64,000 nucleotides of DNA from Patescibacteria group bacterium (GCA_042570465.1 JBHPGO010000001.1:1656-65655); one strand, 5' to 3'; numbered from the stretch's first letter, positions 2,342 through 30,451 are shown. Notes: generated by a model not told the origin, from the sequence alone. A program made the numbers and translations.

Positions 2342-2854
2342 ATGTTAACCAAAGAAAAAGAAACAAATCTAAAAAGTTGTTTTCCTGTTTCGGAAAAGGC
2401 TGTGAAATTGGCCAAAGCAGAAATAAGATCTAATCCTAGGCAACAATTAGAGGCTGAATGGGAAAATATAACTCGGCAAAATACGAGACTTGGGGAATTC
2501 TTAAAATTAAGCCATGATGCTATTAAGCAATCTGGCTACGAAAATAAATATACCGAGGGTGCTTTATGGGTCTATAAGACTATTAGAATTCAGGGAGAGC
2601 TAAGTGGAAGTCTGTCTCCAGTAGTTAGCCAGGAAGTAATAGCCGCATATTCTAGGGAAATAATTGATCAATGCGATGGTACTGGAAAAGAACTCGTAGA
2701 TTTATTTACTGAACTTAAATCAGAAATGGAAGAAAATGAACCCGCCCTTGGAAGGTTAATAAAAGAAGTAACCGCATATGAACCCTATCCAGAATATTAC
2801 TTCGGAGGAGCCTCTGATGTATATTGGCTTCTTGAGAGAGCTTCAGTAAATTAG
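2342..2854 (+). CDS. hypothetical protein
   Basis: A 170-aa ORF in an AT-rich background with no recognizable motif. An R1 repeat follows it. Confidence 0.35.
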   Translation: MLTKEKETNLKSCFPVSEKAVKLAKAEIRSNPRQQLEAEWENITRQNTRLGEFLKLSHDAIKQSGYENKYTEGALWVYKTIRIQGELSGSLSPVVSQEVIAAYSREIIDQCDGTGKELVDLFTELKSEMEENEPALGRLIKEVTAYEPYPEYYFGGASDVYWLLERASVN

Positions 2855-2929
2855 TTCGTATAAAATATCGGATTAATCTTCTTAGACTTAAAGTTGGCAA
2901 TATTAAAGTTGAGGATTAACTCAATATTT

Positions 2930-3025
2930 AGTCTTTCTTGAATTTTTATGAGGCTAAAATGGGTTCTAATTTCATTGAGTCCTCGACGAGATTATATTAA
3001 TTTTTCGTGGTTGAGTCCTCGACCC
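2930..3025. repeat. R1 repeat copy C (with ccacga..tcgtgg hairpin module)
   Basis: tatgaggctaaaatgggttctaatttcattgagtcctcgacgagattatattaatttttcgtggttgagtcc. Confidence 0.7.
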
Positions 3026-3039
3026 CCGAAGCAATAAAT

Positions 3040-3160
3040 TTTTGCCAGGTGCCAAGCTAATACACCTTCCAGGTGGACGGTACAGGTGGACGGTACAGGT
3101 GGACGGCACGACTCGGTCGTTCCGAGGCGGACCTAGGGCACCTGGAAGGTGTACGTTGGA
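3040..3160. repeat. GC-rich repeat cluster: 13-bp tandem (ggtggacggtaca x3) plus 16-mer cacctggaaggtgtac in inverted and direct copies
   Basis: The sequence shows tacaccttccaggtg at about 3061, ggtggacggtaca x3 at about 3071–3110, and cacctggaaggtgtacg at 3139. It embeds the GC motif gactcggtcgttccgaggcggacc. Confidence 0.6.
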
Positions 3161-3199
3161 AGGTGTACATTCTGGTAACTTAGGGGTAGGTGTGTCAAT

Positions 3200-3640
3200 C
3201 TAACAGCCGAACCATTCTTTTCTTATCTCTTCTTCCGTTTGATCGGGGGTAAACCCTCTCCTGATTTGATCTCTATGAGATAGAATATCATTCCTATATC
3301 CAACTTTAAGTAACATTAAAGTGTCATCTAGCGACAAGGCGATTTCTGCAGCAGAACCAAGGGGTCCGGACCATTCGTCTGGTTCCTTTGCTGCGTTCAA
3401 TAATCTATTTTGGGTCAATATTTGAGATTCTCTAACTCTTAATGTAGGCCTATGATTTATATCAACTATTTTTTCCATACGATTTAGCATTATATCATTT
3501 ACCATAAATTGAGGTGTTGGCAGGGGGTTTAAGAGATTTCTCAACGTTTTATCTGAACTGACTAGCAACCGTTGTAGACACCTGGAAGGTGTACGCCCTA
3601 AGCCAACAGTCAAAACATGCCAGGTGGACGGCATGTCCAC
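3200..3640 (-). CDS. hypothetical protein (N-terminus probably shorter; the first ~20 codons lie in the repeat)
   Basis: A 146-aa ORF is bounded by direct copies of cacctggaaggtgtacg at 3139 and 3583. Confidence 0.3.
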   Translation of the reverse strand: MDMPSTWHVLTVGLGRTPSRCLQRLLVSSDKTLRNLLNPLPTPQFMVNDIMLNRMEKIVDINHRPTLRVRESQILTQNRLLNAAKEPDEWSGPLGSAAEIALSLDDTLMLLKVGYRNDILSHRDQIRRGFTPDQTEEEIRKEWFGC

Positions 3641-3645
3641 GAAAA
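3583..3645. repeat. second copy of cacctggaaggtgtacg plus the ccaggtggacggca motif
   Basis: Direct repeat of 3139–3155; ccaggtggacgg also occurs at 3069. Confidence 0.55.
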
Positions 3646-3669
3646 TAGCTGTTGACTTCGTCGTAAAAA

Positions 3670-4803
3670 ATGATTACTCTGACAAAAACAGCGTTATTTC
3701 GCAATTCTTCAATAATGAAAAAAGATTTTAAATATCTACTTTTACTTTTGTTAATCTTCTTGTCCTCTTTGGCTGCCTTAGTAATTCCTAAAAAAAATAA
3801 ATTAAAAAAAAATTATTTAAACACCCCCGCAAACACCAAATCTAAAATGACCGACTCTAGCATTAATCAACAAGTTCAGGAAGAAACTGTTCTCGCTGCC
3901 AAAGATGCTCCGGAAAAAAGAACTGAAAATGATCAACAAATTAAAGTGGCCAATATCCGGTTTGGGGTAGTGGTCAAAGACTACTCAAATAACACTGGCC
4001 AGATTAGCGGACTGGAAAACACTTTAGAAAAAATAGTTTCCACAGTTGGCATCTACAAACAATTTGGCTTGCCGACAAACCAGTATCTAGTCGAAACCGA
4101 TCTGGCATATATTAAAAACGCCGGCAAAATCTTACTACTTGCTTGGGAACCATGGAACCCGAATGAGGGCACCAACCAAAGCATTGACTACCTTAAAGAA
4201 ATTGCTGAAGGAAAACACGATGACTACATCACTACTTTTGCCCGTCAAGTAAAAAATTACTCAAGCCCAGTCTTGTTAAGGTTCGCCCACGAGATGAACG
4301 GTAACTGGTATCCTTGGGGAACTAGGCCTTCAGAATATGTTTCAGCATACCGCCGGATTGTTGAAGTTTTTCACAGTCAAGGAACTGACAACGTTAAGTT
4401 TGTCTGGAGCATTAACCATGAATCTGTTCCCTACGAGCCGATCAGTCAATGCCAGAAGTATTTCCCCGGAGAAGCCTATGTTGATATTATTGGTATTGAT
4501 GGCTTTAATTTCGGAACATCAAGAAACAATTCAACTTGGAAAAGTTTTGACAATATTTTTTCACCGGCCTACTCGTTTGTCTCAACTGCTTATCCGGAGA
4601 AACCTATAATAATCACCGAAGTTGGCTCTACGGAGTTTGGCGGCAATAAAAATAAATGGATAGATGAGATGTTTGCTAGTTTAGCCAATATGCCCAAAAT
4701 CCAAGAAATTATCTGGTTCAACTTATTAAAAGAAACTGATTGGAGAATCGATTCTTCGACCACCAGCACCGAAGCCTTCCAACGCAACTTATCAACCCTA
4801 TAG
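3670..4803 (+). CDS. membrane-anchored/secreted glycoside hydrolase, GH26-like (clan GH-A)
   Basis: The ORF has an N-terminal hydrophobic segment. The motif RFAHEMNGNWYPWG matches the GH26 acid/base signature, and IIITEVGSTEFGG is a candidate nucleophile motif. Confidence 0.55.
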   Translation: MITLTKTALFRNSSIMKKDFKYLLLLLLIFLSSLAALVIPKKNKLKKNYLNTPANTKSKMTDSSINQQVQEETVLAAKDAPEKRTENDQQIKVANIRFGVVVKDYSNNTGQISGLENTLEKIVSTVGIYKQFGLPTNQYLVETDLAYIKNAGKILLLAWEPWNPNEGTNQSIDYLKEIAEGKHDDYITTFARQVKNYSSPVLLRFAHEMNGNWYPWGTRPSEYVSAYRRIVEVFHSQGTDNVKFVWSINHESVPYEPISQCQKYFPGEAYVDIIGIDGFNFGTSRNNSTWKSFDNIFSPAYSFVSTAYPEKPIIITEVGSTEFGGNKNKWIDEMFASLANMPKIQEIIWFNLLKETDWRIDSSTTSTEAFQRNLSTL

Positions 4804-4859
4804 TTTGACTTCTCATCGTTAGTCTTGTATAATATCCCATAGTATTACTAAGAACGCGT

Positions 4860-7562
4860 ATGGACTTTTTTCGAGTCCATATTTTTTTATCACCAAATAT
4901 GTTGCAAGACTTTTACCTGAAGGCGTCCAAAATCAAAAAGCTTCTGATCAAGCTGGGGATTGTCTATGGCCTAATCCTGACCACCGGCTATGCCCTGTTT
5001 CGGGCTTATTACATCAATTTTAATCCCTACCTGGTTATTCCCGCCATTCTTTTATATATGGCCGAGCTTCACACCATTATTCTTTTATACGGTTTTTTAT
5101 ATTCTCTTTGGCCAAGAAAATTCAAAACTTATTCTAAAATTAATCGCAACCGGAACCTGCAAGTTAACTTATTTATAACAACAGTCGGTGAACCGATAGA
5201 AATTGTCAGTCAAACCATTGAGCACGCTAAAAAAGCGGCCGATCACTACCGAAAAATTGTCAAACCTAAAAAAGCCCCCCGGGTGATTGTTCTTAACGAC
5301 GGCTTTGGTGCTAAGAAAGAAAACTGGTGGCAGGTCCGTGACTTTTGCCAAAAGGTGGGTGTGCTTCACCTTGCCCGAAAAACTAACGAAGGCTTTAAGG
5401 CCGGCAATATCAACAACGGTTTAAAAAAATTTCCAAGTAAAGATCCCCATAACACTATCGACTGCTATTTTGACGCTGACTTTTGTGCCAAAAAAGAATT
5501 TTTGATCGAGATCTTAAAACCCCTGGTTGACAACAAGGTTGACTTTGTCCAAAGCCCTCAGCGCTATAAAAACCTGACTACTTGGGTAGCCAAAGGGGCC
5601 GGAGCTCATCAAATTTTCTTTTTTGACTATGTTTGTCCGGCCAAAGCCTATGACAACGCTCTCTTTTTATGCGGCACTAATTATGCCATCAGAAGACAGG
5701 CGCTTTTGGATGCTGGCGGAGTTGACAATCGGTTTGTCACCGAGGATTACGCGACCTCGATCAAACTTCACTTGCTGGGCAAAAAAGGAGTTTTTGTTTC
5801 TAAGGTGCTGGCTTTGGGCATGGCCCCGATGAACCTTAAGGAATACTTTAACCAGCAAACCCGATGGTGCAAAGGCTGTCTTGATGCCAACGGAAAATAT
5901 CTCAAAGAATTGCTCTTTGGTCCGTTAAATTTCAGGCAAAAACTTCATTACTTTTTATCAACCGCTTATTACTTTATCGGGGTCAGGGATTTGATCTTGG
6001 TGCTGGCTCCCATCCCATATCTTTTTTTCGGCATTTCTCTGATCAGAGCCAATACCACCATGTACCTGGCTTTTGTCTACCTGCCATTAATGATCTTCAA
6101 TTTCAGCTTGTTTTTCCTGACTTTTCGCAGCCCCGTTAAAAGCTTGGTGCTGGATATTGTCACCTTTCCGGTCTTTGCCTTGGCTTTTGTATCCAGTGTT
6201 ATCAAAAAAAATCTTCCCTTTACCGTCACTATCAAAAAATATGAAAAAGAAAATCCTTTCCGGGTTTACAAAATTCAGCTGGCAGTAGCCACGCTCCTCT
6301 GCGCGGGAATTGCTTACAGCTTCCTGTTTAATAGAAACCACAACCCCTATGGGAAGTTTATTAATCACTTTTGGGCCACTTATAGCGCCACTTTTTTGTT
6401 GCTTGGTTTTTTCCTGGTCATCAGGGAAAACTATGATTTCAGTCGGCTTGAAAATCATTACTCAAACTTACTGGGAACCTTAAAAAATGCTCTCGGTTTC
6501 ACTAAAAGATTTGCCCTAAGGCCAGCGGTTGCTTTCGTCGCCGTCATTATCGCCTTTATCTTCCTTGGCTATAGCGTCAAAACCGGTGTTTTGGCTTACG
6601 ATGACATCCGAACAACTTTTAACAAAATCATCAAAAGAGAAGAGCTTTTAGTTCCCGACAATGGGGCTTACTATGGTTACTTTTTACCGGAGCTGAATTC
6701 GCACCCGGAAAGTCCGGTCATCTCGACCGTTGAGGGTGATCACCCAAGCCTGGTGATGTACTATCAAGATTTTAGCCCTGATTCGCAGTTTAACCTCAAG
6801 TTTATGAACATGCTTTATGAAAAAGGGTCAATCCCGATCGTTACCTGGGAGCCTTGGATCCGTGGCTCAGATCAGGAAAAGATTATTAACCAAGAAGGCC
6901 AAGCAGCCGAGGAAATATTATCGGGGAAATATAATGAGCATATCAGGCAATGGGCCAGAGGTGCTAAAAAATTTGGTAAACCTTTCTTTTTAAGGTTTGC
7001 CCACGAGATGAACGGCAACTGGTATGCCTGGGGTTCTTTTGATGAAAATAGCGCCAGTCAATACAAAAAAATGTGGAAGCATGTTTTTACCATCTTTAAA
7101 GAAGAGAAAGTTGACAACGCGATTTGGGTCTGGTCCCCCAACAACACCAACCAATACGGATTAGCCGACTCGATGCTTGATTTTTACCCTGGTTCTGAGT
7201 ACGTTGACTGGACCGGTTTTTCTGCTTTCAACTGGGGAAATTCTTATTCTGACAATCGTTGGATGGATTTTAAAACCAGTTGCTGGGAGGCTTACTCTAC
7301 CTTGGCCCAGTTGAACAAGCCAATCATGGTGGCCGAAACTTCTTCGGTTAGTATCGGTGGCGACAAAACCGAGTGGTTTAGGCAAACCCTCGAACAAGAC
7401 ATTCCCTCAATGCCTTTGATAAGGGGGGTAGTTTTATTCAATGAAGACTATCAGAATGCCGACTTTATCCTTGATAAAGGGATGGACGCCAACGAAATGG
7501 TCAAACATCATTTGCTCAACAATGGCTACTATCTAACCAATCCAATTCTCCAGTATCGGTAA
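4860..7562 (+). CDS. fusion protein: processive GT2 (cellulose-synthase-like) membrane glycosyltransferase plus C-terminal GH26-like domain
   Basis: DADF, TEDYAT and QQTRWCKG (QxxRW) motifs sit between TM helices. The C-terminal RFAHEMNGNWYAWG and IMVAETSSVSIGG are paralogous to the upstream GH26-like ORF. The true start may be an internal Met. Confidence 0.6.
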   Translation: MDFFRVHIFLSPNMLQDFYLKASKIKKLLIKLGIVYGLILTTGYALFRAYYINFNPYLVIPAILLYMAELHTIILLYGFLYSLWPRKFKTYSKINRNRNLQVNLFITTVGEPIEIVSQTIEHAKKAADHYRKIVKPKKAPRVIVLNDGFGAKKENWWQVRDFCQKVGVLHLARKTNEGFKAGNINNGLKKFPSKDPHNTIDCYFDADFCAKKEFLIEILKPLVDNKVDFVQSPQRYKNLTTWVAKGAGAHQIFFFDYVCPAKAYDNALFLCGTNYAIRRQALLDAGGVDNRFVTEDYATSIKLHLLGKKGVFVSKVLALGMAPMNLKEYFNQQTRWCKGCLDANGKYLKELLFGPLNFRQKLHYFLSTAYYFIGVRDLILVLAPIPYLFFGISLIRANTTMYLAFVYLPLMIFNFSLFFLTFRSPVKSLVLDIVTFPVFALAFVSSVIKKNLPFTVTIKKYEKENPFRVYKIQLAVATLLCAGIAYSFLFNRNHNPYGKFINHFWATYSATFLLLGFFLVIRENYDFSRLENHYSNLLGTLKNALGFTKRFALRPAVAFVAVIIAFIFLGYSVKTGVLAYDDIRTTFNKIIKREELLVPDNGAYYGYFLPELNSHPESPVISTVEGDHPSLVMYYQDFSPDSQFNLKFMNMLYEKGSIPIVTWEPWIRGSDQEKIINQEGQAAEEILSGKYNEHIRQWARGAKKFGKPFFLRFAHEMNGNWYAWGSFDENSASQYKKMWKHVFTIFKEEKVDNAIWVWSPNNTNQYGLADSMLDFYPGSEYVDWTGFSAFNWGNSYSDNRWMDFKTSCWEAYSTLAQLNKPIMVAETSSVSIGGDKTEWFRQTLEQDIPSMPLIRGVVLFNEDYQNADFILDKGMDANEMVKHHLLNNGYYLTNPILQYR

Positions 7563-7952
7563 AATACTCCCAGCCAACGATCCTGCTTCGGTACTATTTT
7601 TTCCTTATGGTTTTAGGGGACTTCTTTACTGAAAGACTTACCCACCTTCGATGGCCCAATTATTACAATAGCATGATATAATAACTTTGTTATCTAGAGG
7701 AGATCTATGACAGAAGTGTATGGGCCAAAAACAGAAACAACAGAAGAATTATCGGGGAAGATTGACATGGGAATTATTCTTTCTAGGATTGGAATTGCCC
7801 AGGTTGCTTTAAGCCTTGGTTTTCCACTTGGTTCTTTGCACTCACCAGAGGATACAGGAAAACCACCTGCTGTAAATGATCCGCCTGAAACACCCAAATA
7901 GCTTTTAACTATTTTCATTTTAAATCCTTTCATGGCCCCTTTTTTTGCAATA

Positions 7953-7967
7953 GGCTGGTATAATATG
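7953..7967 (+). promoter_or_regulatory. extended -10 promoter ggctggtataat, with AGGAGG RBS 5 nt before the ATG at 7993
   Basis: The sequence shows aataggctggtataat; the same 16-mer occurs at 10864. Confidence 0.45.
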
Positions 7968-7992
7968 CATAGTCGTTTGGAAAGGAGGAAAT

Positions 7993-8289
7993 ATGATAGA
8001 AAAAACTGTTGGGAATACAATTGAAGAGCCAGAAAGAGAAGAAACTAAACGTGAGAAAGAATTAAGGGAAGCACTCGGCTCTTTGGTGGCAGTAGTAAGA
8101 TTTAACGAGTTTTGTGGACAAGTGGAAACTAGACTTGAAGGATTGACGATTATGTCAGCCGATGTGAATCCTGCAAAACAAGAAGTTGGTAAGCCGCCTT
8201 CTAATGAAGCAGTCGAAATATTAATTAATGATGAAATCGATGAAATTGTTAGGAAATTCGGTAGACTACCTGCTCCAGACCAAGAATAA
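7993..8289 (+). CDS. small hypothetical protein (98 aa), acidic
   Basis: ORF with a canonical RBS and the conserved promoter; the antisense Ser-rich ORF 7920..8306 is judged spurious. Confidence 0.4.
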   Translation: MIEKTVGNTIEEPEREETKREKELREALGSLVAVVRFNEFCGQVETRLEGLTIMSADVNPAKQEVGKPPSNEAVEILINDEIDEIVRKFGRLPAPDQE

Positions 8290-8395
8290 TTCTTAACTGT
8301 CTTCATTTAAAATCTTCCTCAGTTGATTCATCAAAGTTTTATAAAGGTAACCCTGATACTTTGGGTGTTAACTGAAATTTCCTTGTTCGTCAACC

Positions 8396-8468
8396 CGTCT
8401 CGACTCGGCTCGCCTCGCGCCCGCCTTGTCTTCGACAAGTCGAGACAGGTCGAAGCGGGTCATTCCGA
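8396..8468. repeat. GC-rich palindromic insert (H2 family)
   Basis: The sequence cgtctcgactcggctcgcctcgcgcccgcc...gtcgagacag...ccgaggcggaccc shares cgactcgg..tccgaggcggacc with 3106 and 42362. Confidence 0.5.
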
Positions 8469-8689
8469 GGCGGACCCGTATCAAACCATGTTCGTGAAGT
8501 GCTTTCAATTACTATATTACTCCAGTGTATTTTGTCAACGACTTCTGAGTTATGGTCAAAAGAACAACCCTAAACCCTCCAACCCCTCGGCATAAGTGCC
8601 CCAGTACCAGTTCCGATCTAAAATCGGAACGATACGGGGTGAACTTCCTTATGATTTGGGGTTGCTTAATTTTTACCCCAGTGTCGAGG

Positions 8690-8747
8690 AGAAGTGGGGT
8701 CGTGTAATTCTTATTCTTGGGGTGAAGCACCCCCAATTGAAATTTTC
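8690..8747. repeat. R2 repeat (gaagtggggtcgtgtaattct..ttggggtgaagcacccccaattgaaa) copy 1
   Basis: Near-identical copy at 9093 and a partial copy at 9477. Confidence 0.65.
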
Positions 8748-8756
8748 AAAATATTC

Positions 8757-9005
8757 CTAAACATTATTTACTTGTGCTTGATTAGGATTACGGATAGCTT
8801 CTTTGAATCTAGCTTGAAATTTAGTTAATAGTTCTTGAGCAAGTTCTTTGCCATCGAATACTGGACTTTTTTCTTCAAAAATTGTCGAGGGGTCTCCAGA
8901 ACGTGGCGCTTCCATACCAAAATCTTCAAATATTTTTCTTATTTGTGCACGAACTCTTAAATCTTCTGGTGTAACTGGTTTTATATTTTCTAATTCAACT
9001 AGCAA
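8757..9005 (-). CDS. small hypothetical protein (82 aa)
   Basis: An ORF with a GGAGG RBS; an R2 element lies in its 5' region. Confidence 0.3.
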   Translation of the reverse strand: MLVELENIKPVTPEDLRVRAQIRKIFEDFGMEAPRSGDPSTIFEEKSPVFDGKELAQELLTKFQARFKEAIRNPNQAQVNNV

Positions 9006-9092
9006 TTTATTATCACCTCCTTTCTTTACCCCTCCGTAGTCCCGATTTAATATCGCGGACGAAGGAGGGCTGCCCCTTCCTCGCAGTTCTAT

Positions 9093-9150
9093 GCGAAGTG
9101 GGGTCGTGTAATTCTGTCCTTGGGGTGAAGCACCCCCAATGGAAAATTCG
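9093..9150. repeat. R2 repeat copy 2
   Basis: gcgaagtggggtcgtgtaattctgtccttggggtgaagcacccccaatggaaaattcg. Confidence 0.65.
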
Positions 9151-9166
9151 ATTAGTTTAACGCAAA

Positions 9167-9448
9167 CTATCTTTCAGTTTGATCAAGTTCACCTAGTCCT
9201 TCTTCTTGGCTCCTATCAATTTCTAAATCATAGGTCGCCTCCTCCTCGAGAGTCAGTCGTCTACCCATAACCGTTGTTTTATAAACACCATCTGGTCCAA
9301 CATCAATGCCAACCGAAACAACTTTCCTTCCAGGTTTAACCTCAGGTAGTTGCGGATCCCCTGGAGTTTCTCCTTCTGGTAGTTTTTCGGCTTCTTCCTC
9401 GGGAATATAGGTAATAATCGGTCTTGGCTCATAATGTTCAACAGGCAT
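9167..9448 (-). CDS. small hypothetical protein (93 aa)
   Basis: An ORF with an AGGAGG RBS, and a partial R2 copy upstream at 9477. Confidence 0.3.
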   Translation of the reverse strand: MPVEHYEPRPIITYIPEEEAEKLPEGETPGDPQLPEVKPGRKVVSVGIDVGPDGVYKTTVMGRRLTLEEEATYDLEIDRSQEEGLGELDQTER

Positions 9449-9476
9449 TATTTAATCCTCCTTTCTTGTTAATTAT

Positions 9477-9503
9477 TGGGGCCTACCCCCGATTGAAATT
9501 GTT
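9477..9503. repeat. R2 partial copy 3 (ggggcctacccccgattgaaattg)
   Basis: Shares the acccccaattgaaatt core. Confidence 0.5.
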
Positions 9504-9593
9504 AATCTATCCTCCCAAACTCACCTTTCGGCTTTTGGACGAAAATCTAGTTGGCACATCACCCGCCAATATGAAGAAAAAACAGATGTTTCT

Positions 9594-10199
9594 TCAGAGG
9601 CTCTCGTATGCCTCCACCTGATTTTCATATTCGTATTTAACCATGCCGTAGTCGTTTTCCCACTTTTGCATTGCACTTTTCATAATGTCTAAATGGGTAT
9701 TTTGTTTCGCCAGCCAGTCAAAGGATTCCATTTGTTCATCAATCTCGTATCTGACCATGCTGTAATCATCTTCCCATTTATTTTCGGCATCCGCCTTAAC
9801 AATGTCTTTTGCTTCTTCTCTGGATGGTAAAAGACTAGCTCCTGTTTGCTGTATTTTTATTGTAGGCGTGGGTGCTTCAGTTGTTTTTTCTTCTATCTTC
9901 TCCTCTGGTTTGACGGTGGCGGTTACTTCTACTTCTTTTACGGGTGTCGGTGTTAACTTCGAAGAATCACTTTTCTTGCTATCATCATTGCCGAAGACAC
10001 CAATTATTAAAAACAGCCCGAGAAAAAGACCAACCAGAATCAGGCATCCCTTAGCTTTTTTTGTACCCTCTCTCTTTTTCTCTTCCTTCTTAATGTCTTT
10101 CCTGACCTTGACGCGATGTTTTTCTTCTGCCTCAATTTTATTCTTTTTTTCTTCAGACAAGGTTTCTTTATCTTCTTTAATCATTTTTTCACCCACCAT
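9594..10199 (-). CDS. membrane-anchored Lys/Glu-rich protein with two tandem ~25-aa C-terminal repeats
   Basis: TM segment LILVGLFLGLFLIIGVF; the repeats KWEDDYSMVRYEIDEQ and KWENDYGMVKYEYENQ. Confidence 0.4.
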   Translation of the reverse strand: MVGEKMIKEDKETLSEEKKNKIEAEEKHRVKVRKDIKKEEKKREGTKKAKGCLILVGLFLGLFLIIGVFGNDDSKKSDSSKLTPTPVKEVEVTATVKPEEKIEEKTTEAPTPTIKIQQTGASLLPSREEAKDIVKADAENKWEDDYSMVRYEIDEQMESFDWLAKQNTHLDIMKSAMQKWENDYGMVKYEYENQVEAYESL

Positions 10200-16720: not shown

Positions 16721-19570
16721 CTAAAGCGACCAATTAGCAATCACAAGAGCAAGGTCCAAAATGTTAACTATTTGATCGTCATTAAGATCAGTAGCTTGAG
16801 CTTGGCCTAGAGGGTCTGCTCCCCAGTTTTCCAAAACAAGCTTTAAGTCTTGAGTGTTAACTTCGCCGCTACCATCAACATCACCAAGAATCGGAGCTGG
16901 AGATGGGTTGGTAAATAAAACTTCAACCGGTCCGTGGTAGCTTCTTAGACCACTGGTATCAATATCTTCCAATAAATAGTGATAAGTGGTTCCCGAGACC
17001 ACATCCTCATCCAGATATTCATAGAAAGAAGGAGTGGCACAACCTAAACATTGGCTGAGAATTATTTGATTGTTGATTTGAGTAAAAGTTGACTGATAGG
17101 GATCAGCCGGGTCATAGTCCGAGCTGCGGTGGAGGTTAAAACCAAGATTATCTATTTCTTGGGCCGTTTCCCATTCAATCAAAACTTTTTCTGGACTGTC
17201 AGTGGCAGAAAAACTACTTAAGAAAATTGCTACTGGTCCTCCTGGAGCACATTGAGAACAGTCGAAGACACAGTCAGGGTGATCTATGATCGGGCTGCAA
17301 TTCACTATGTTTGAACATTCCCATGTTTCATGATCACAACTGAAGCCGTTCATCATTGGCGGTGGTGGGGTTGGAGTCGTCAGCAAGGAAGAGTCAATGA
17401 AATGGAGATATAATTCATCGAAATATACGGTTGCATTACTCCCTTCGTCGAAGCGGAAAAATATTTTGATGCTTTCCGTACCTGAAGGAACGGTAGTTCC
17501 GGAAAGGGTGAAATCCTGCCAGAAACCGGTGGCTATGTTCATGTCAAACATTTCTTGGCCAAGGAGGCCAGTATCCCAGTATTGAATGCCGACTTTGATT
17601 TTGACAGGACCGTTCATGCTGGCGATAAAATATTTGCCGGAAGCTTTGACAATATCTGAAGGGTTGATGTTAGTGGTAAGATTAGTGTAGAGAGCCCACT
17701 CTTGATTGCCGGCCGCGTAGTCGGCCCTGAGAGCATAGTTGCCCTGAAAGGCTTGTTGGCTTGAAGCAGACTCAACTAAGCTGCCAGATGATGAATCTGA
17801 AGACCAGGCATAAAAATCTTCACCGCATTCAAAGTTGTGTTGAAGGGGAGAAAGCTTTCCAGCCGTGTATGGATCAACCAAGTTCCAGGAAGAGCTGTTT
17901 TTATGGCAGCAATAGTTGTCAATGACTTGAGAGTTTTGAGCTTCTAGAGAAAAACTCCAGCCTGGGTCATAGCTGGCCGCACAAACATACCATTGACTGG
18001 CGTTGGTTTGGGCACTGCATAAAAAACGATTGTCAGGCCAATCTTCTCCGGTTTGATACTTCATAGCCAAGGTTGAACCCTTGCCGCACCAGAAGCCGGC
18101 GCAGGTATTGTAAGGAGAATGTTGGTCGCAAACATTTGGCCGCCCCCATTCAACGATGACCGGATCGTTAGAAACTGAAATTTTGACCTGACCATTGGCT
18201 GAGCCGTCGGTATCACCACTACCGCCATCAGTAATATATGTTTTAACGCCAGCTTTATTGGTTTTAATCACTGAAGAAGCGAAATAATCTCTGTTTTCAG
18301 TTGTGGCTGACCTTGACCATAAGATTTCCTTGAACTTGCCGCTGAGATGGTTATGGATAAAAACATAGCCCTCCAGCAAACTGTTGGCCTCTTTGGCTAA
18401 GTAGGAGTAATTTTTCATTTCATCAACAAGAATTTTGAAAGTACCAAATGAGGGCCTGATGGTATTATCCAGTCTGACAAATCCATAATCGGCTTCAAAG
18501 TAATCTTTGAGGGTAAACCATAGGAGGGGTCCCTCGCCGGTAGAGATGCTTTGAGAAAAGAGTTTAAATACTAGTCTGGCTTGGGTTTCTTCACTGACGG
18601 TTTCGTTGACTGGCTGACCAATTTCAGAAAATAAAATTGGTTTGTCACCGGCGCCATATTGGGCCATTAAGTTTTTAGCCCAATGGATTTTGCCCCTGAC
18701 GCCGCCGCCACTATAGTTGTCATTTTCATGACCGGTCCAATTGTTATAAAAAGCCTCATAATAGTGGAGGTTCATGTAGTCAAAAAATTGTTTTCCCCAA
18801 GTTTGGTAAGAATAAGCTAAAACATTTTCTAAAAAGTTGATGTTAAACACACAACAATCTTCGAGCGCCATGCCGGAAAATAAGATGATGGCGCTAGGAT
18901 TAGCCGCCTTAATTTCATTATAAAAGGTTCTTTGAAGAATAGCGTAATCTTTGTAATCATCAAGGCCGTTGTTATTTAAATCGTCGTCAGAGCCATATTT
19001 ATGGAAGCTATCAATTTCGTTTAGGGGTTCGAAATGATTTAAAATTGGGTTACCGGGAGCGTCGTTAATGCCGTCGCCATCATATCTTTCGGCTAATAAC
19101 CTTAATAATTCCCCATATTCTCCCAGATCTTCATCATCCATTGGTCCCCCGACATTTCTACCCGATTCTTCAACCGCCCAATCCGGAAATTCATATAAGC
19201 TCATCGAAACTAAGATATCATGCTGATTGTAAGCTTTAATATTTGAATCCAGCTCATCCCAAGTGTAAACATTTTTGGTCGCTTCAATGTCTTTCCAGCG
19301 ATAAAGATGGTTTTCAACTTTAGCACCGCTTTCCAGGAAAAGCTGGCCGACCGGGCCATATACAGGGTCAAAAGGAAATTCCCTAACCGTGTTAATGCCA
19401 AAAGCCATTTGGTCAAAATCACGGGTAAAAATGAACGGGCTGGTCGAGGCTTGGGCAATCATGCCTATTTTTTCAACTTCTCTTTTTTTAGTAGAATTCA
19501 GGAAAAGGATGAAGATCAACAACGGTATTGAAAAGACAGCTAGAATTTTAATAAAACCAAATCTTTTCAT
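16721..19570 (-). CDS. secreted glycoside hydrolase (GH5-like, clan GH-A) with Cys-rich region and C-terminal dockerin
   Basis: EPLNE is a candidate acid/base and ILFSEIGQ a candidate nucleophile. The C-terminal DVDGSGEVNTQDLKLVLENWG...DLNDDQIVNILDLALVIANW has two dockerin Ca-loop/helix repeats. There is an N-terminal TM/signal. Confidence 0.55.
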   Translation of the reverse strand: MKRFGFIKILAVFSIPLLIFILFLNSTKKREVEKIGMIAQASTSPFIFTRDFDQMAFGINTVREFPFDPVYGPVGQLFLESGAKVENHLYRWKDIEATKNVYTWDELDSNIKAYNQHDILVSMSLYEFPDWAVEESGRNVGGPMDDEDLGEYGELLRLLAERYDGDGINDAPGNPILNHFEPLNEIDSFHKYGSDDDLNNNGLDDYKDYAILQRTFYNEIKAANPSAIILFSGMALEDCCVFNINFLENVLAYSYQTWGKQFFDYMNLHYYEAFYNNWTGHENDNYSGGGVRGKIHWAKNLMAQYGAGDKPILFSEIGQPVNETVSEETQARLVFKLFSQSISTGEGPLLWFTLKDYFEADYGFVRLDNTIRPSFGTFKILVDEMKNYSYLAKEANSLLEGYVFIHNHLSGKFKEILWSRSATTENRDYFASSVIKTNKAGVKTYITDGGSGDTDGSANGQVKISVSNDPVIVEWGRPNVCDQHSPYNTCAGFWCGKGSTLAMKYQTGEDWPDNRFLCSAQTNASQWYVCAASYDPGWSFSLEAQNSQVIDNYCCHKNSSSWNLVDPYTAGKLSPLQHNFECGEDFYAWSSDSSSGSLVESASSQQAFQGNYALRADYAAGNQEWALYTNLTTNINPSDIVKASGKYFIASMNGPVKIKVGIQYWDTGLLGQEMFDMNIATGFWQDFTLSGTTVPSGTESIKIFFRFDEGSNATVYFDELYLHFIDSSLLTTPTPPPPMMNGFSCDHETWECSNIVNCSPIIDHPDCVFDCSQCAPGGPVAIFLSSFSATDSPEKVLIEWETAQEIDNLGFNLHRSSDYDPADPYQSTFTQINNQIILSQCLGCATPSFYEYLDEDVVSGTTYHYLLEDIDTSGLRSYHGPVEVLFTNPSPAPILGDVDGSGEVNTQDLKLVLENWGADPLGQAQATDLNDDQIVNILDLALVIANWSL

Positions 19571-27124: not shown

Positions 27125-30100
27125 CTATCTTTTTCTATACCAGGCGTCGTAGACCAAGGGAATAAAAAAAAGCATGATAATTCCTGAAAGAGTCAGGCCT
27201 GAAATAATCGCTCCTCCTAGTCCTCGCCACATGGGGTCAGATAAGGTAATCGGGGTCAAGCCGATGATGTTAGTGACCGAGCTAAAAATAATTGGTTCCA
27301 ACCGACTTGAGGCTCCATCGGCAATCGCTTCATCAAAAGAAAGGCCAATCTTTAAGTTGCGGTTAATTTTGTCGACAATCATAATCGAATTCTTGACGAC
27401 AATACCGAAAAGAGCCAAAATTCCGATCAGGGCCGGAAATGAAAGAGGGGTTCCGGTCAAACCAAAGACAATGAAAACTCCTGAAATAGCCAAAGGAATC
27501 ACCAGCATGACGATGACCGCCTGCCGGAAAGATTTCAGCTCAACAACCATCGTGGCCAAAATTAAGATTATCGCCAAGATCATGGCTTGGATGATTGAGT
27601 TAACTGAGCTTTCGTTTTCCTGATTAGCCCCACCAGTTTGCCAACTATAGTTGGCCGGTAACTCCATTTCCTGATCAACAAATTTTTCTAATTCTTGGCC
27701 GATTTGGACTTTATTGAAATCCGGAAGAACCGAAGCGCTGATGGTAATTGATCTTTGGCCATCGACCCGAGTGATTTTTGTCGGGCTTTCATTTAGCTTT
27801 AGTTCGCCTAAAGAAAGAAGATTGAACGACTCGCCCCAGTTGTTTGAAAGAGTAATTTTTGAAAGCTCTTGGGGAGCAAGATTCCCGTGGCTCAGCCTCA
27901 GTTGAATTGGACATTCGTTTTGACAACCATTTTCTTGCAGTGTAAACGTGTCTAACCTCATTCCGGATAAATAGGTTCTTAGCGTTAGGGCCATTTGCTC
28001 AATTGAAACGTCGGCTTGATAAAGTTGGTGAGGGGTGGGAACAAAGACAAGTTTACTTAAGCCAGGGACAATCGAAAGGTTTACATTGGTTGTTCCCGGA
28101 TGAGATTCCAGCTTAGCCTGAACAATTTGGGCTAGCTCCTGAAGCTTGATGGTTTCTTCGCCCAAAAGGGTCATTTCAATATCCGCCCCAGTTGGTGGTC
28201 CACCAGAAATTTCAACAATTTGAAGCTTGCCAAGGGTATAGTCACTAAACTTTTCTCTTAAATCTTGGGCAATTTCAATTGAACTGGATTTTCGATCTTC
28301 TCTGAGTTTTAGAGAAAACCTTACTTTGTGGGATTGATTAATCTGGTTTGCCAGGCCCATTTCAATATCTGCTCCAATATCAGCCAAAACATATTCCGTG
28401 TCGTCAGTAGACCTGATAATTTCCAGTAGCTTGAGGCCTTCTTTTTCTGCTTGTTCTAGGCTTGTCCCAACTGGGAGCTCAAGACTAAGGTAAAGATTAT
28501 CTTCGTCTGTTTTGGGAAAAAATTCGTTTTGGACCAGCCCCAGTGGGACCAAGAGGTAAGAAAAGATCGAAAAAGCTAAAATACCGAAGATAATTTTTCT
28601 TTTGGCTCCTCTTGAGCGAAGAATTTTTTTAAGAATTTTTTTATAAGCATAGATTGGGCCTTTGATAGTTAAAAAGCCGTCTTGAAACCTTTTCTTGAAA
28701 GCAAAGTTTCTCAATTTATTCTTGAAGTAAAGCCGATAAATTTTCTGATAATTATTTTTGAGCTCTTTTTTAATTATCAGAAACATTCCACCCAGGGCCA
28801 GATAGGCCAAAATTATTAACCATGCAAAGGGATTGCCCGAAGTTGTGGCCATAATTATTATTAAAGGCAGTAATCCAGCCAGTAGGGAAACCAAAATTAA
28901 AACCCGAGTTGGGATCTTAGGTTTTAAAACAACGACCATAAAAGGAATGGCAACCAACAAGGCTATCGCAGTTGAGGCCACCAGAGCAATTGTCACCACA
29001 AAGGAAATCACTTTCGTAAACTCTCCAATAATGCCGGTGGCAATCAAAAGAGGTAAAAACGACCAGACATTTGTTAAGTTACTGGACAAAGTCGGCGACC
29101 AAAAGTCGTTCCAGACTAAAACCGCCGTTTGCTTGGGGGTGAATTTTCCGTTTTGGTAATAGTCGGTCATGGCGGAAATCATGACAATTGCGTCATCGAC
29201 GATCATTCCCAGGCCCAAAAGCAAGGAAAAGATTGAAAGAAATGAAAGTTGAATGTCGACAACGTACATCGCCGCAAAAGTAGCCAAAAAACTCAAAGGA
29301 ATCACAAAAGAGGCAATCGCTGCCTGCCTCAGGCCAAGAAAGATTAATAAAGTTAAAAAGACCAAGAAAAGACTGGTTGAAAAGTCTTTAATTAGACCTT
29401 GAAATTGGTCTGATATTTGTTTGGAAAAGTCAGTTAATATTTTCATTTGGTAATGAGAGTTTGCCAAGCTAATTGTTTTTTCAGCTGTCTGGCGGGACAA
29501 CCGGGCTGATTCTTCTAAGTCAGCCGAAACTGTTTTAAAGACAGAAAAAGTAACCGTTCTCAGGGGTTTTACTTCATGATCTGCAAAAAAACTATTGGCC
29601 TGCAAAGGTGAAGAACGAAGAGAAATATCAGCGATTTGGGAAAGAACAATTTTGTTTTCATTAAGCTTGATGGGCAGGTTTCGAAGGGTCTCAGTTGTTT
29701 TGCCAGGAAGGTCAAGGCTGAAAGATAAGTTTGAGCGATCAGTCTGAACAATTCCGAGCGGATAATCAGTCAAAGAATTGCGAACAGCCTGAGAAACGAT
29801 TAAAGGAGAAACCCGGTAAGTAAGGTAAGTTTCAGGTTTGATAAATATTTCCAGCTCGGTTTCTTCCAAGCCAGAGACAGTCACTTTCTGAATTTCCGGC
29901 AGACTCTCGAGTTTTTTTTGTAAGGAACGGGAAAAGTTCATCAATGAAACCGGGTCGATTTGAGAAGTCAAGGCAAAAGTAACCACCGGAACATCCTCAA
30001 AGTCAAGAGGCATGACAATTGGTTTTTGGCTTTCGTTTGGCAAGTCAGTCACTGAGCCGATTGAAGTTTGAATATCGGCGGTGGCTTGATCATTGGCAAT

Positions 30101-30451
30101 GGTTGATTCAAATTCAACGACAATCGAAGAGTGGTTCTCTTGGGAGGCTGAAGAAACAGTTTTAATACCCGGGACACTTTCAATCGCTTCTTCAAGAGGA
30201 ATAGTTACTTGCTGCTCGACATCCTTTGGGCTGGCCCCGGGAAAAATTGTTGAAACAAAAATATAAGGAATTTCGACGTCAGGGTTGATTCGTCGTGGTA
30301 GTTTGACATAACTAAAGGATCCGGCGATCAAGATAGTGATCACCAGCAAGATAATTAGTCGTAAATTGCTTAAAAATGAATAAGCCCAGGTTTTTTTTAG
30401 TTCGGGCGAAAACTTAAGCTTTTTTAAATAAGAGGACTTGGGGTTACTCAT
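27125..30451 (-). CDS. RND family efflux transporter permease (AcrB-like)
   Basis: A 1108-aa ORF with 12 predicted TM helices in two blocks and large periplasmic loops, overlapping a membrane-fusion-protein (MFP) gene. Confidence 0.85.
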   Translation of the reverse strand: MSNPKSSYLKKLKFSPELKKTWAYSFLSNLRLIILLVITILIAGSFSYVKLPRRINPDVEIPYIFVSTIFPGASPKDVEQQVTIPLEEAIESVPGIKTVSSASQENHSSIVVEFESTIANDQATADIQTSIGSVTDLPNESQKPIVMPLDFEDVPVVTFALTSQIDPVSLMNFSRSLQKKLESLPEIQKVTVSGLEETELEIFIKPETYLTYRVSPLIVSQAVRNSLTDYPLGIVQTDRSNLSFSLDLPGKTTETLRNLPIKLNENKIVLSQIADISLRSSPLQANSFFADHEVKPLRTVTFSVFKTVSADLEESARLSRQTAEKTISLANSHYQMKILTDFSKQISDQFQGLIKDFSTSLFLVFLTLLIFLGLRQAAIASFVIPLSFLATFAAMYVVDIQLSFLSIFSLLLGLGMIVDDAIVMISAMTDYYQNGKFTPKQTAVLVWNDFWSPTLSSNLTNVWSFLPLLIATGIIGEFTKVISFVVTIALVASTAIALLVAIPFMVVVLKPKIPTRVLILVSLLAGLLPLIIIMATTSGNPFAWLIILAYLALGGMFLIIKKELKNNYQKIYRLYFKNKLRNFAFKKRFQDGFLTIKGPIYAYKKILKKILRSRGAKRKIIFGILAFSIFSYLLVPLGLVQNEFFPKTDEDNLYLSLELPVGTSLEQAEKEGLKLLEIIRSTDDTEYVLADIGADIEMGLANQINQSHKVRFSLKLREDRKSSSIEIAQDLREKFSDYTLGKLQIVEISGGPPTGADIEMTLLGEETIKLQELAQIVQAKLESHPGTTNVNLSIVPGLSKLVFVPTPHQLYQADVSIEQMALTLRTYLSGMRLDTFTLQENGCQNECPIQLRLSHGNLAPQELSKITLSNNWGESFNLLSLGELKLNESPTKITRVDGQRSITISASVLPDFNKVQIGQELEKFVDQEMELPANYSWQTGGANQENESSVNSIIQAMILAIILILATMVVELKSFRQAVIVMLVIPLAISGVFIVFGLTGTPLSFPALIGILALFGIVVKNSIMIVDKINRNLKIGLSFDEAIADGASSRLEPIIFSSVTNIIGLTPITLSDPMWRGLGGAIISGLTLSGIIMLFFIPLVYDAWYRKR

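Follow-up and report, generated by a model that had tools for sequence, protein, structure and literature searches.

Almost all synthase-dependent polysaccharide systems come with a glycanase or lyase of their own, among them those for bacterial cellulose, alginate, Pel, Psl, and PNAG. Plant cellulose (KORRIGAN) and tunicate cellulose (GH6) are further cases of a synthase paired with a glycanase. Why synthases need an enzyme that destroys their product is still debated. Roles in chain release or length control are filled by separate proteins such as BcsZ, CcsZ, PslG, or AlgL, and BcsA itself ends in a cytoplasmic PilZ domain that binds c-di-GMP. Glycoside hydrolases are near-universal in the operons for synthase-dependent exopolysaccharides, and their presumed function there is polymer release (PMC7710045).

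In the BcsA-BcsZ (GH8) and clostridial CcsA-CcsZ (GH5) pairs, the synthase is a processive family-2 glycosyltransferase (GT2). It carries D, DxD, TED, and QxxRW motifs and a gating loop of the FxVTxK type, forms its own channel across the membrane, and has the gene for a dedicated endoglucanase as a neighbor (PMC7710045). Tunicate CesA joins a cellulose-synthase-type GT2 to a C-terminal GH6 domain that lacks its catalytic Asp and is considered inactive, while an intact free paralog, GH6-1, is present in the genome (PMC10334666). Family GH26 includes characterized beta-1,3/1,4-glucanase activity (PMC10470212; PMC6556568). One such enzyme, CtLic26A, is the lichenase module of Clostridium thermocellum CelH, a secreted cellulosomal protein that degrades plant glucan and has neither a membrane tether nor a link to a synthase.

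Here we describe a two-gene unit from a Patescibacteria bacterium, located in a window of 64,000 nt, in which a gene for a GT2-GH26 fusion lies next to a gene for a free GH26 enzyme (Table 1). It is likely, judging from the encoded sequences, that these genes form a minimal, c-di-GMP-independent, and self-contained synthase-dependent exopolysaccharide module whose GH26 activity would be directed at the nascent chain, probably a beta-glucan. A literature search found no publication on the GT2-GH26 fusion architecture.

Architecture of the synthase-hydrolase fusion

A first-pass annotation of this DNA had described two proteins, of 377 and 900 aa, and both open reading frames (3670-4803 and 4860-7562) are present. 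Its proposal of a processive, cellulose-synthase-like GT2 joined to a GH26 domain, with a free-standing GH26 paralog adjoining, is borne out by the GT2 motifs and by Pfam matches to GT2 and Glyco_hydro_26 models. The length of 900 aa given for the fusion is probably an overestimate. The NCBI record that is 100% identical to it (P0001, named 'glycosyl hydrolase [Patescibacteria group bacterium]') and the closest homologs have 887 aa, and the ATG at 4860 is part of a hairpin that precedes a T-run; for these reasons the start codon is most likely at 4899.

Table 1. Features of the GH26 and GT2-GH26 genes, in window positions; residue numbers of the fusion refer to the 887-aa protein counted from nt 4899
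Feature	Position (nt)	Strand	Residues, basis, or remark
Stand-alone GH26 gene	3670..4803	+	377 aa; Pfam, motif location
Possible alternative start of free GH26	3715	+	M16
N-terminal hydrophobic anchor or signal	3733-3786	+	22-39
Low-complexity linker, then GH26 barrel		+	barrel about 96-377 of free enzyme
Acid/base E208 in RFAHEMNG	4279-4302	+	204-211
Nucleophile E317 in ITEVGS	4612-4629	+	315-320
Intergenic leader	4804..4898	+	between free GH26 gene and fusion start
Sigma-70-like site, TTGACT-17-TATAAT	4805-4833	+	
10-bp hairpin and T-run	4858-4890	+	directly ahead of probable start codon 4899
GT2-GH26 fusion gene	4899..7562	+	887 aa; mechanical ORF from 4860 (900 aa)
N-terminal TM hairpin	4941..5087	+	TM1 15-33, TM2 45-63; hydropathy
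Cytoplasmic GT-A catalytic domain	5088..5951	+	64-351; Pfam, NCBIfam, phmmer, motifs
GT-A motif NDG	5295-5303	+	133-135
GT-A motif GFKAGN	5391-5408	+	
GT-A motif DAD	5472-5480	+	192-194
GT-A motif LFLCGTN	5661-5681	+	
GT-A motif TED (catalytic base)	5739-5747	+	281-283
GT-A motif QQTRW	5853-5867	+	319-323
Channel-forming membrane region	5952..6422	+	TM3 352-382, TM4 390-408, interface helix 417-435, TM5 459-477, TM6 490-508
Gating loop FTVTIK	6219-6236	+	441-446; FxVTxK type
Segment in place of PilZ	6423..6635	+	AF2 model and hydropathy
Amphipathic cytoplasmic helix	within 6423..6635	+	509-537; 5 K/R
Extra TM7	6510-6566	+	538-556
Flexible linker after TM7	within 6423..6635	+	roughly 20 residues; model pLDDT <50 at 561-576
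GH26 (beta/alpha)8 domain, predicted extracytoplasmic	6636..7559	+	about 580-887; Pfam, PDB match, Foldseek
WEPW motif of fused GH26	6846-6857	+	
Acid/base E703 in RFAHEMNG	6993-7016	+	699-706
Nucleophile E813 in VAETSS	7329-7346	+	811-816

Residues 1 to ~510 of the fusion are a BcsA-type processive family-2 glycosyltransferase. Pfam matches several GT2 models to the 900-aa protein (Glyco_trans_2_3 at 6.9e-19, and Cellulose_synt at its gathering score), and the NCBIfam CelA/BcsA model TIGR03030 scores 184.5 bits (E 2.5e-54), which does not reach the equivalog cutoff of 699.1; NF008558 likewise remains under its cutoff (117 bits vs. 992). The D, DxD, TED, and QxxRW motifs are invariant among 69 aligned homologs, and re-inspection for the last of these, as had been suggested earlier, located it as QQTRW. 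Residues 440-446 (PFTVTIK) align with RFAVTAK of BcsA in phmmer comparisons with 5ej1/4hg6, and V443, T444, and K446 of this gating loop are invariant in alignment A1. Foldseek matches the fusion to BcsA (4p00_A) with an E-value of 1.7e-26 and a TM-score on target of 0.61 over 541 columns, and the AF2 model places helices (H11-37 and H46-70) at the N-terminal TM hairpin.

The fusion departs from BcsA after TM6. No PilZ domain (PF07238) is found in it by Pfam, and an amphipathic helix, TM7, and the GH26 domain follow instead; relatives that do bear PilZ, P0112 among them, share only 25-30% identity with it. A count of hydrophobic segments, set in the register of BcsA, gives seven TM helices with the C-terminus outside, and five K/R residues occupy the loop ahead of TM7. 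This topology prediction, proposed earlier as a way to learn on which side of the membrane the hydrolase domain lies, indicates by inference that GH26 is held outside the cell, beside the channel exit, by TM7 and the linker. The AF2 model is continuous (mean pLDDT 90.6), with the linker as its sole disordered stretch, and its pTM of 0.61 makes the placement of GH26 relative to the channel unreliable.

Other components of cellulose synthesis complexes were also sought. The flanking ORFs at 1222-2244, 2342-2854, 3200-3640, and 9594-10199 match no Pfam family, and so none is of the BcsB type. No BcsB family appears in the other window ORFs scanned, a set exclusive of small ORFs at 7.6-9.5 kb, or is recorded in related loci, and BcsC is absent from the fusion and the ORFs scanned. 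Thus, compared with Bcs and Ccs systems, this one is without PilZ, BcsB/CcsB, and BcsC in the ORFs scanned, its hydrolase is from GH26 and one copy is joined covalently to the synthase by way of an additional TM helix, and its GT domain shares only 27-30% identity with genuine BcsA proteins and falls under the CelA equivalog cutoff. The earlier comparison with the BcsA-BcsZ partnership is reasonable. In both, a processive GT2 has a dedicated glycoside hydrolase encoded beside it.

Without a PilZ domain, regulation of the fusion gene appears to be transcriptional, through either its own promoter-like site and hairpin or an ECF sigma factor/DUF5667 pair. The order of promoter-like site, hairpin, T-run, and ATG recurs, with a different stem sequence in the hairpin, in five loci (L001, L010, L018, L030, and L031). 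In some other genomes, genes for an ECF sigma factor and a DUF5667 protein lie between the free GH26 and fusion genes.

Two GH26 modules of the lichenase branch

Both proteins match Glyco_hydro_26 (PF02156) above the gathering score, at 3.2e-21 for residues 663-804 of the 900-aa protein and at 1.4e-16 for the 377-aa protein. No family outside the glycoside hydrolases scores better with the C-terminal domain of the fusion, for which GH26 is the best match. CtLic26A is the best PDB match for the fused module (E 2.1e-32) and for the free one (2bvd, E 2.1e-46), while the best mannanase reaches only 6e-11 and 1e-12 with the two modules. Foldseek superimposes the fused module on CtLic26A structures with TM-scores on target of 0.84-0.88 (0.88 for 2cip). 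By these comparisons, both modules fall with CtLic26A in the lichenase branch and not in the mannanase branch, and they are far from the xylanases as well. Of the mannanase/lichenase type first suggested for the hydrolase, only the lichenase half is retained.

The residues needed for catalysis are present in both copies. E703 and E813 of the fused module, like E208 and E317 of the free one, correspond in alignments to the acid/base (E109) and nucleophile (E222) of CtLic26A, with which WEPW, HExNGxWYxW, and many cleft residues are also held in common, despite an overall identity of only 30-42%. Among the 59 fusion homologs, E703 is kept in all and E813 in 58, and most of the aromatic residues of the cleft are kept as well. 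The free enzyme carries an N-terminal hydrophobic segment, from which it is predicted to be membrane-anchored or secreted.

The fused and free modules are 31% identical (BLASTP E 9e-40) and their homologs form two separate clades in a tree, which argues that the duplication was an old one and that neither copy has been lost since. Members of the free clade are 36-42% identical to CtLic26A, which a neighbor-joining tree places with them, and those of the fused clade 30-36%. A few positions specific to the fused clade differ from both the free copy and CtLic26A, including W264 to F856 and D183 to S775 (CtLic26A to fusion), and so the fused GH26 may not be a simple hydrolase.

An extension of this idea is that the fused domain is not mainly a hydrolase, and that it serves as a BcsB-like outer guide, a carbohydrate-binding platform, or a transglycosylase for joining or cross-linking chains, leaving the free GH26 as the only true hydrolase. 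GH26 enzymes are retaining and therefore able to transglycosylate, the fused clade has diverged further from CtLic26A with substitutions of its own, and the long retention of both copies suggests nonredundant roles. The fused GH6 of tunicate CesA, thought to be noncatalytic beside its intact free paralog, offers a precedent. That resemblance is architectural only, since the C-terminal domain here is GH26, not GH6; the tunicate enzyme is inverting, GH26 is retaining, and the hosts are a eukaryote and a bacterium. Unlike the tunicate domain, the fused clade shows almost no variation at either catalytic glutamate or in RFAHEMNG, which argues that catalysis is retained, and we judge a mainly nonhydrolytic role to be unlikely.

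The polymer and a proposed mechanism

The product is most likely a beta-glucan with Glc-beta1,3-Glc-beta1,4 or beta1,4 linkages, either mixed-linkage or cellulose-like, an assignment that derives solely from the nearest characterized hydrolase at 30-42% identity. RiGT2 of Romboutsia ilealis and BgsA of Sinorhizobium meliloti, which we liken to this synthase by description, are BcsA-like GT2 enzymes with a lichenase-cleavable product (PMC10374906), and no fused hydrolase is reported for them. A product of that type is what the lichenase-type GH26 points to here. RiGT2 has been expressed heterologously in yeast. The first-pass annotation had named a mannan or a mixed-linkage beta-glucan as the product. 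Of these, beta-glucan is now favored and mannan disfavored because both GH26 modules lie in the CtLic26A branch, although synthases fused to a CE4 deacetylase (see below), which that annotation did not foresee, count against a firm assignment.

A beta-1,4-mannan or glucomannan, with both GH26 modules acting as mannanases, would accord with the fact that beta-mannanases make up most characterized GH26 enzymes (PMC6556568), and JGI labels one related fragment 'beta-mannanase'. We regard it as highly improbable, given that CtLic26A outscores every mannanase by 20-35 orders of magnitude for both modules, that the free clade groups with CtLic26A, and that the nearest relatives of the GT are BcsA proteins, which use UDP-glucose.

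Caution about a plain glucan is warranted because two sister synthases (P0064 and P0067) bear, where GH26 sits in the fusion, a CE4 deacetylase in which none of the five family motifs is missing. They are 42% identical to it in a full-length alignment (55% in the best local BLASTP alignment), share GFKAGN, FLCGTN, TEDYATS, QQxRW, and VTIKKYE with it, and have an equivalent hydrophobic segment ahead of the C-terminal domain. Large CE4 proteins also adjoin the GH26 pair in three of about 14 loci (L008, L016, and L029). The CE4 domains of sisters and neighbors hint at an acetylated or amino-sugar polymer, and BcsA-like GT2 enzymes can polymerize sugars other than glucose, as does Listeria PssC.

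If so, the product would be an acetylated or N-acetylhexosamine glycan, comparable to PNAG, Pel, or the ManNAc polymer of Listeria Pss, with CE4 in the same pathway and GH26 of a new specificity. The GT, however, scores 184 bits with the CelA model and only 35 bits with that for PgaC/IcaA, and a Pfam scan gives it no Chitin_synth match. Moreover, each CE4 gene in L016 is paired with a separate PgaC-like GT2 that could be its real partner, no CE4 or acetyltransferase occurs among the window ORFs scanned, and GH26 shares its RxxHExNG, WEPW, and nucleophile regions with a glucan-specific enzyme. Overall, such a polymer seems to us quite unlikely.

Under the favored beta-glucan reading, the GT2 would polymerize a nucleotide sugar, most probably UDP-glucose, at the cytoplasmic face, and the growing beta-linked chain would be threaded through the channel of the synthase itself, as expected for its family. 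The tethered GH26, a catalytically intact retaining endoglycanase of the lichenase type, may then cut or transglycosylate the emerging chain, and by doing so could determine how long chains become, free the polymer from the synthase, and remove chains that have stalled. The free upstream enzyme, an older paralog, would trim, remodel, or disperse polymer that has already been released.

A bolder proposal, which we hold to be doubtful, is that one polypeptide combines synthase, translocon, and outside endo-/trans-glycosylase, and that ultra-small Patescibacteria need nothing beyond it and the free GH26 to make a coat of mixed-linkage beta-glucan. In place of both BcsB and BcsZ, the tethered GH26 would serve as a built-in chain-length ruler or cross-linker, and the C-terminal module would be an exchangeable tailoring cassette, GH26 or CE4 according to lineage. 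This would be the first natural 1:1, structurally tractable complex to fix the debated role of synthase-associated glycanases.

A hydrolase that is covalently fixed to its synthase with catalytic residues intact could reveal why synthases need a partner hydrolase. With two genes from a reduced genome and no PilZ, BcsB, or outer-membrane parts, the module is a compact candidate for cryo-EM and heterologous reconstitution, and a possible new bacterial source of mixed-linkage or cellulose-like glucan. For Patescibacteria, in which little is understood of how cells attach to one another, it supplies a concrete candidate for the surface polymer. The exchange of GH26 and CE4 at one position suggests a general modular rule for the tailoring of nascent polysaccharides, and echoes the hydrolase-deacetylase pairing of PgaB (CE4 and GH153) and PelA (GH166 and CE4), which are likewise extracytoplasmic and dedicated to a synthase polymer. 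Those two are separate periplasmic proteins rather than parts of the synthase, and involve other hydrolase families and polymers.

Distribution of the pair

Because the contig belongs to a metagenome-assembled genome, the fusion could in principle be an artifact of assembly or gene calling. The probability of this is negligible: the gene is a single uninterrupted ORF with a confident and continuous AF2 model, the same architecture occurs in the 59 full-length homologs (42-74% identical) from independent assemblies and sources, and matches to dozens of 50%-identity clusters extend over both domains.

Of 14 distinct, closely related loci from Patescibacteria-type MAGs, 13 have a free GH26 gene next to the fusion gene. 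A free GH26 gene also lies beside distant fusions in L007, L032, and L033; distant fusions (about 30% identical) with this neighbor come from an Actinomycetota MAG, from a contig with CW_binding_2 cell-wall-binding proteins, and from Bacteroidota. The free and fused pair is a deeply conserved module in several phyla. The free GH26 of L033 bears CW_binding_2 cell-wall-binding repeats, and a GH16 gene is found near the pair in L008.

The fusion protein and its synthase part

Two ORFs share one strand within nt 3670-7562 of the window, which is a chromosomal piece of a CPR genome of Microgenomates/Woesebacteria-like type. The first encodes a free 377-aa GH26 protein that has a hydrophobic anchor or signal at its N-terminus, and the second encodes a fusion of GT2 domains with a C-terminal GH26 domain. 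The first-pass annotation had placed GH26 domains in both proteins, and Pfam agrees (1.4e-16 for the free module and 3.2e-21 for the fused one). The 900-aa ORF of the fusion has an exact counterpart (100% identity) at NCBI, a protein of 'Patescibacteria group bacterium' whose database copy is 887 aa long. Because the nearest homologs are also 887 aa and the ATG at 4860 lies inside a hairpin and T-run, the start was taken as nt 4899. The closest relatives are found in MAGs of Woesebacteria, Microgenomates, Blackburnbacteria, and Levybacteria. An artefactual fusion was ruled out by 59 full-length homologs and many distant fusions.

The synthase part most closely resembles bacterial cellulose synthases. 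Its top NCBIfam model is CelA/BcsA (184.5 bits, E 2.5e-54, well short of the equivalog cut-off of 699), far ahead of PgaC/IcaA at 35 bits, and phmmer searches of the PDB recover BcsA of Rhodobacter (E 4e-31) and Escherichia coli (E 1.5e-28). The alignment with BcsA runs from the first membrane hairpin to the gating loop, where PFTVTIK stands against RFAVTAK of BcsA. The D and QxxRW motifs of processive GT2 enzymes, claimed when the sequence was first read, are indeed present, and the full set of catalytic signatures (NDG133, GFKAGN165, DAD192, LFLCGTN255, TED281, and QQTRW319) is invariant across 69 aligned homologs. A tblastn search against plasmids gave 27-30% identity to bcsA genes, a comparison that does not tell synthase types apart.

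An AlphaFold2 model built from the 69-homolog alignment has a mean pLDDT of 90.6 and a pTM of 0.61, with disorder only at residues 561-576. When this model was compared with known structures by Foldseek, the N-terminal 540 residues matched BcsA (4p00; TM-score on target 0.61, E 1.7e-26). Over its C-terminal 300 residues, the model matched CtLic26A, a GH26 module of Clostridium thermocellum CelH (TM-score on target 0.84-0.88). Pfam detects no PilZ domain in the fusion, and control by c-di-GMP was ruled out on this ground. Likewise, the flanking ORFs scanned match no Pfam family, and thus no BcsB-type partner was found among them.

The GH26 modules and their predicted location

Both GH26 modules are closest to CtLic26A (E 2.1e-46 for the free module, 2.1e-32 for the fused one), a beta-1,3/1,4-glucanase module that represents the only characterized glucanase branch of the family (PMC10470212, PMC6556568). 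The best mannanase matches are far weaker, at 6e-11 and 1e-12 for the two modules. Therefore, of the earlier description of the hydrolase as 'mannanase/lichenase-type', the lichenase half is retained and the mannanase half is dropped as the leading option. In alignments with CtLic26A, the acid/base glutamate falls on E109 and the nucleophile on E222. Among the 59 fusion homologs, which are 42-74% identical, all keep E703 and 58 keep E813. The same set shows no variation in the WEPW strand or in the whole RFAHEMNG-WY-W block.

In a neighbor-joining tree, the free and fused modules form separate clades that each cover the same genomes, and CtLic26A joins the free clade, to which it is 36-42% identical (fused clade, 30-36%). 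Because the two clades span the same genomes, the duplication is, on the evidence of this tree, an old one in which both copies have been retained. Forty-one conserved positions are identical between the clades, and most of these match CtLic26A too. Clade-specific sites are few; for example, the fused clade has F856 where CtLic26A and the free clade have W264, and S775 in place of D183.

Hydropathy analysis of the fusion protein yields eight hydrophobic segments. Read in the BcsA register, segment 417-435 would correspond to interface helix 3, before the cytoplasmic gating loop, leaving predicted spans at 15-33, 45-63, 352-382, 390-408, 459-477, and 490-508 plus an extra helix at 538-556, which is preceded by a K/R-rich loop (5 K/R in 29 residues). 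With seven spans and a cytoplasmic N-terminus and GT domain, the fused GH26 domain is predicted to be extracytoplasmic. Such a topology fits the signal or anchor of the free GH26 paralog, as well as the cell-wall-binding CW_binding_2 repeats carried by the free GH26 protein of a distant locus.

Conservation, spread, and leader of the pair

A same-strand free GH26 gene lies upstream of the fusion in 13 of 14 distinct closely related loci; the exception, L012, has none within 6 kb. Flanking genes vary from locus to locus, and therefore the two genes travel as a unit. Three loci additionally have genes for an ECF sigma factor and a DUF5667 protein next to the pair (see table). Two of these, L003 and L005, have in common the word GTGTTACGTTT, which lies some 40-60 nt before the start of the fusion gene and is possibly an ECF-type promoter.

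Coordinates of the gene pair, its leaders, associated genes, and other features of the window
Feature	Locus	Coordinates	Strand	Remark
Free GH26 gene	window	3670-4803	+	
Fusion gene	window	4860-7562 (4899-7562 from the adopted start)	+	
Leader	window	4804-4898	+	sigma-70-like site, hairpin and T-run, fusion start codon
Leader	L001	7867-8000		
Leader	L010	2464-2557		
Leader	L018	~6667-6785		
Leader	L030	7903-8000		
Leader	L031	7878-8000		
ECF sigma and DUF5667 genes	L003	6695-7923		between free GH26 and fusion gene
ECF sigma and DUF5667 genes	L005	6388-7904		between free GH26 and fusion gene
ECF sigma and DUF5667 genes	L008	1563-2819		nearby
Large CE4 protein	L008	4753-6447		adjoins pair; 564-924 aa across the four CE4 rows
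Large CE4 protein	L016	2679-5453		adjoins pair
Large CE4 protein	L016	9471-11801		adjoins pair
Large CE4 protein	L029	1833-4427		adjoins pair
Oddly labelled MAG	L013/L008			DATBWR010000001.1
Oddly labelled MAGs	L015-L017, L026, L028			
Repeats	window	3061-3169, 3579-3633		window-unique
Small ORF	window	3200-3640	-	146 aa, no Pfam match
Short overlapping ORFs	window	7563-9590	both	downstream of fusion gene
Secreted protein	window	16721-19570	-	949 aa
RND transporter region	window	27125-31955	-	AcrB-family protein, 1108 aa

The leader between the two genes carries a strong sigma-70-like site (TTGACT-17-TATAAT, 11/12 matches). The same order of promoter (TTGACW-17-TATAAT), GC-rich hairpin, T-run, and start codon recurs in five further loci where the GH26 gene directly precedes the fusion, and is missing where ECF sigma and DUF5667 genes intervene. 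Because the hairpin stems differ between loci, it is the structure that has been kept rather than the sequence. From this arrangement, the terminator-like hairpin may either end GH26 transcription as an overlapping terminator or attenuate the synthase transcript from within its leader. Rfam, searched at a permissive threshold over nt 2800-9600, matches neither the leader nor the downstream region to a known RNA.

HMMER was run exhaustively against 1.84 billion cluster representatives, and the best 150 were counted by hand. Among these, about 40 (25-36% identical to the query) match both domains in one stretch and about 20 more match them as two stretches, falling into length classes of ~810-980 aa and ~1060-1390 aa. 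Judged from these matches, the GT2-GH26 architecture extends well past CPR. Named short forms come from an Actinomycetota MAG and Christiangramia, and long forms from Pontibacter, Pedobacter, and Arcticibacter; the Bacteroidota forms sampled are ~1210-1270 aa. In the Pontibacter protein P0088, the GT2 and GH26 parts are followed by a second GH-A-type barrel with weak GH2_C/GH72 matches.

Separate GH26 genes also accompany some of the distant fusions. One is convergent and directly downstream in the Actinomycetota locus, and a divergent GH26-CW_binding_2 gene lies upstream of the fusion in another locus, which encodes CW_binding_2 proteins. The Arcticibacter locus (L007 6676-13514) has an overlapping upstream GH2_C-like gene and an adjoining convergent gene for a 568-aa protein with two GH26-like stretches.

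Some MAGs that carry the CPR-type module bear the names 'Candidatus Nanoarchaeia archaeon' or 'uncultured Gammaproteobacteria bacterium'. The former label looks wrong because the contig also encodes MurT, a GatD-like GATase_3 protein, FemAB, and ECF sigma factors. Among the records with the latter label, one is a single-chromosome assembly of 1.61 Mb.

Candidate polymer and surrounding genes

In nearly every synthase-dependent exopolysaccharide (EPS) operon there is a gene for a hydrolase or lyase, such as BcsZ (GH8), CcsZ (GH5), or AlgL, that is thought to release or trim the polymer (PMC7710045). The simplest reading of the pair would be such a system cut down to two genes, in which fusion of one GH26 copy to the synthase would place the hydrolase where the chain emerges. 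A beta-glucan of mixed-linkage or cellulose-like type is suggested by the lichenase character of GH26, by donor and acceptor motifs like those of BcsA, and by the presence of a GH16 gene in one locus.

The sister synthases call for caution. Relatives that share only the GT part (~50-55% identity across it) are known from Abditibacteriota and other bacteria, and two of them, P0064 and P0067 (L009 8001-10496), carry a CE4 deacetylase exactly where GH26 sits, after an equivalent hydrophobic segment. None of the five catalytic CE4 motifs (TFDDG, HSWSH, RPP, DxxDW, and LHD) is missing from this domain, and the GT active-site motifs equal those of the window fusion. In three loci, the pair also has large CE4 proteins as neighbors; the two from L016 that were scanned have an N-terminal CE4 domain and a long C-terminal part. 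From these fusions and neighbors, the polymer might be acetylated or contain amino sugars, and O-acetylated cellulose systems are known (PMC7710045). However, every CE4 gene in L016 is paired with a separate PgaC-like GT2, which may be the true CE4 partner, and Pfam finds no acetyltransferase or other EPS gene among the window ORFs scanned. Nor does phmmer find window ORFs resembling the CE4, GH16, ECF sigma, or DUF5667 proteins of related loci. Alternatively, the synthase family may bear exchangeable outside 'tailoring' modules that act on different products.

Our literature search found no published description of a BcsA-GH26 fusion, and database names are confined to 'glycosyltransferase family 2', 'glycosyl hydrolase', and 'cellulose synthase (UDP-forming)'. 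The bacterial mixed-linkage glucan synthases RiGT2 and BgsA are of BcsA type, but these still have PilZ or c-di-GMP binding, and no hydrolase fusion has been reported for them (PMC10374906). In architecture, the nearest precedent is tunicate CesA, whose GT2 part is followed by a C-terminal GH6 domain missing a catalytic Asp and which is accompanied by an intact free paralog, GH6-1 (PMC10334666). Both systems thus possess one fused and one free hydrolase copy, although the window pair is bacterial, uses another hydrolase family, and has intact catalytic residues. The pair is unsurprising in principle, yet it is uncharacterized and phylogenetically broad, and offers a compact handle on the open role of synthase-associated glycanases.

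The window otherwise holds housekeeping genes, including those for glycolysis, folate metabolism, tRNAs, and an RND pump. Just upstream of the free GH26 gene, repeats flank a small minus-strand ORF. CACCTGGAAGGTGTA has three copies, one of them inverted, which creates a perfect inverted repeat of 15 nt with arms 63 nt apart; CAGGTGGACGGYA has four copies, three in tandem at 3070-3108 and one at 3621. Chance expectations in the window are 0.1 and 0.03, respectively, and the repeats could be an operator array or mark a small repeat-flanked insert. Downstream of the fusion gene there are only short overlapping ORFs, and the AT skew falls to -0.136 at 8-10 kb.

The AcrB-family transporter (E 2e-140) adjoins an HlyD-type membrane-fusion protein, and no outer-membrane factor was identified among the window ORFs scanned. 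Finally, the C-terminus of the secreted 949-aa protein matches a type I dockerin (Pfam E 2.2e-4, slightly below the gathering score), with no further Pfam domain in the protein. To our knowledge, a dockerin-like module is unusual for a Patescibacteria genome.
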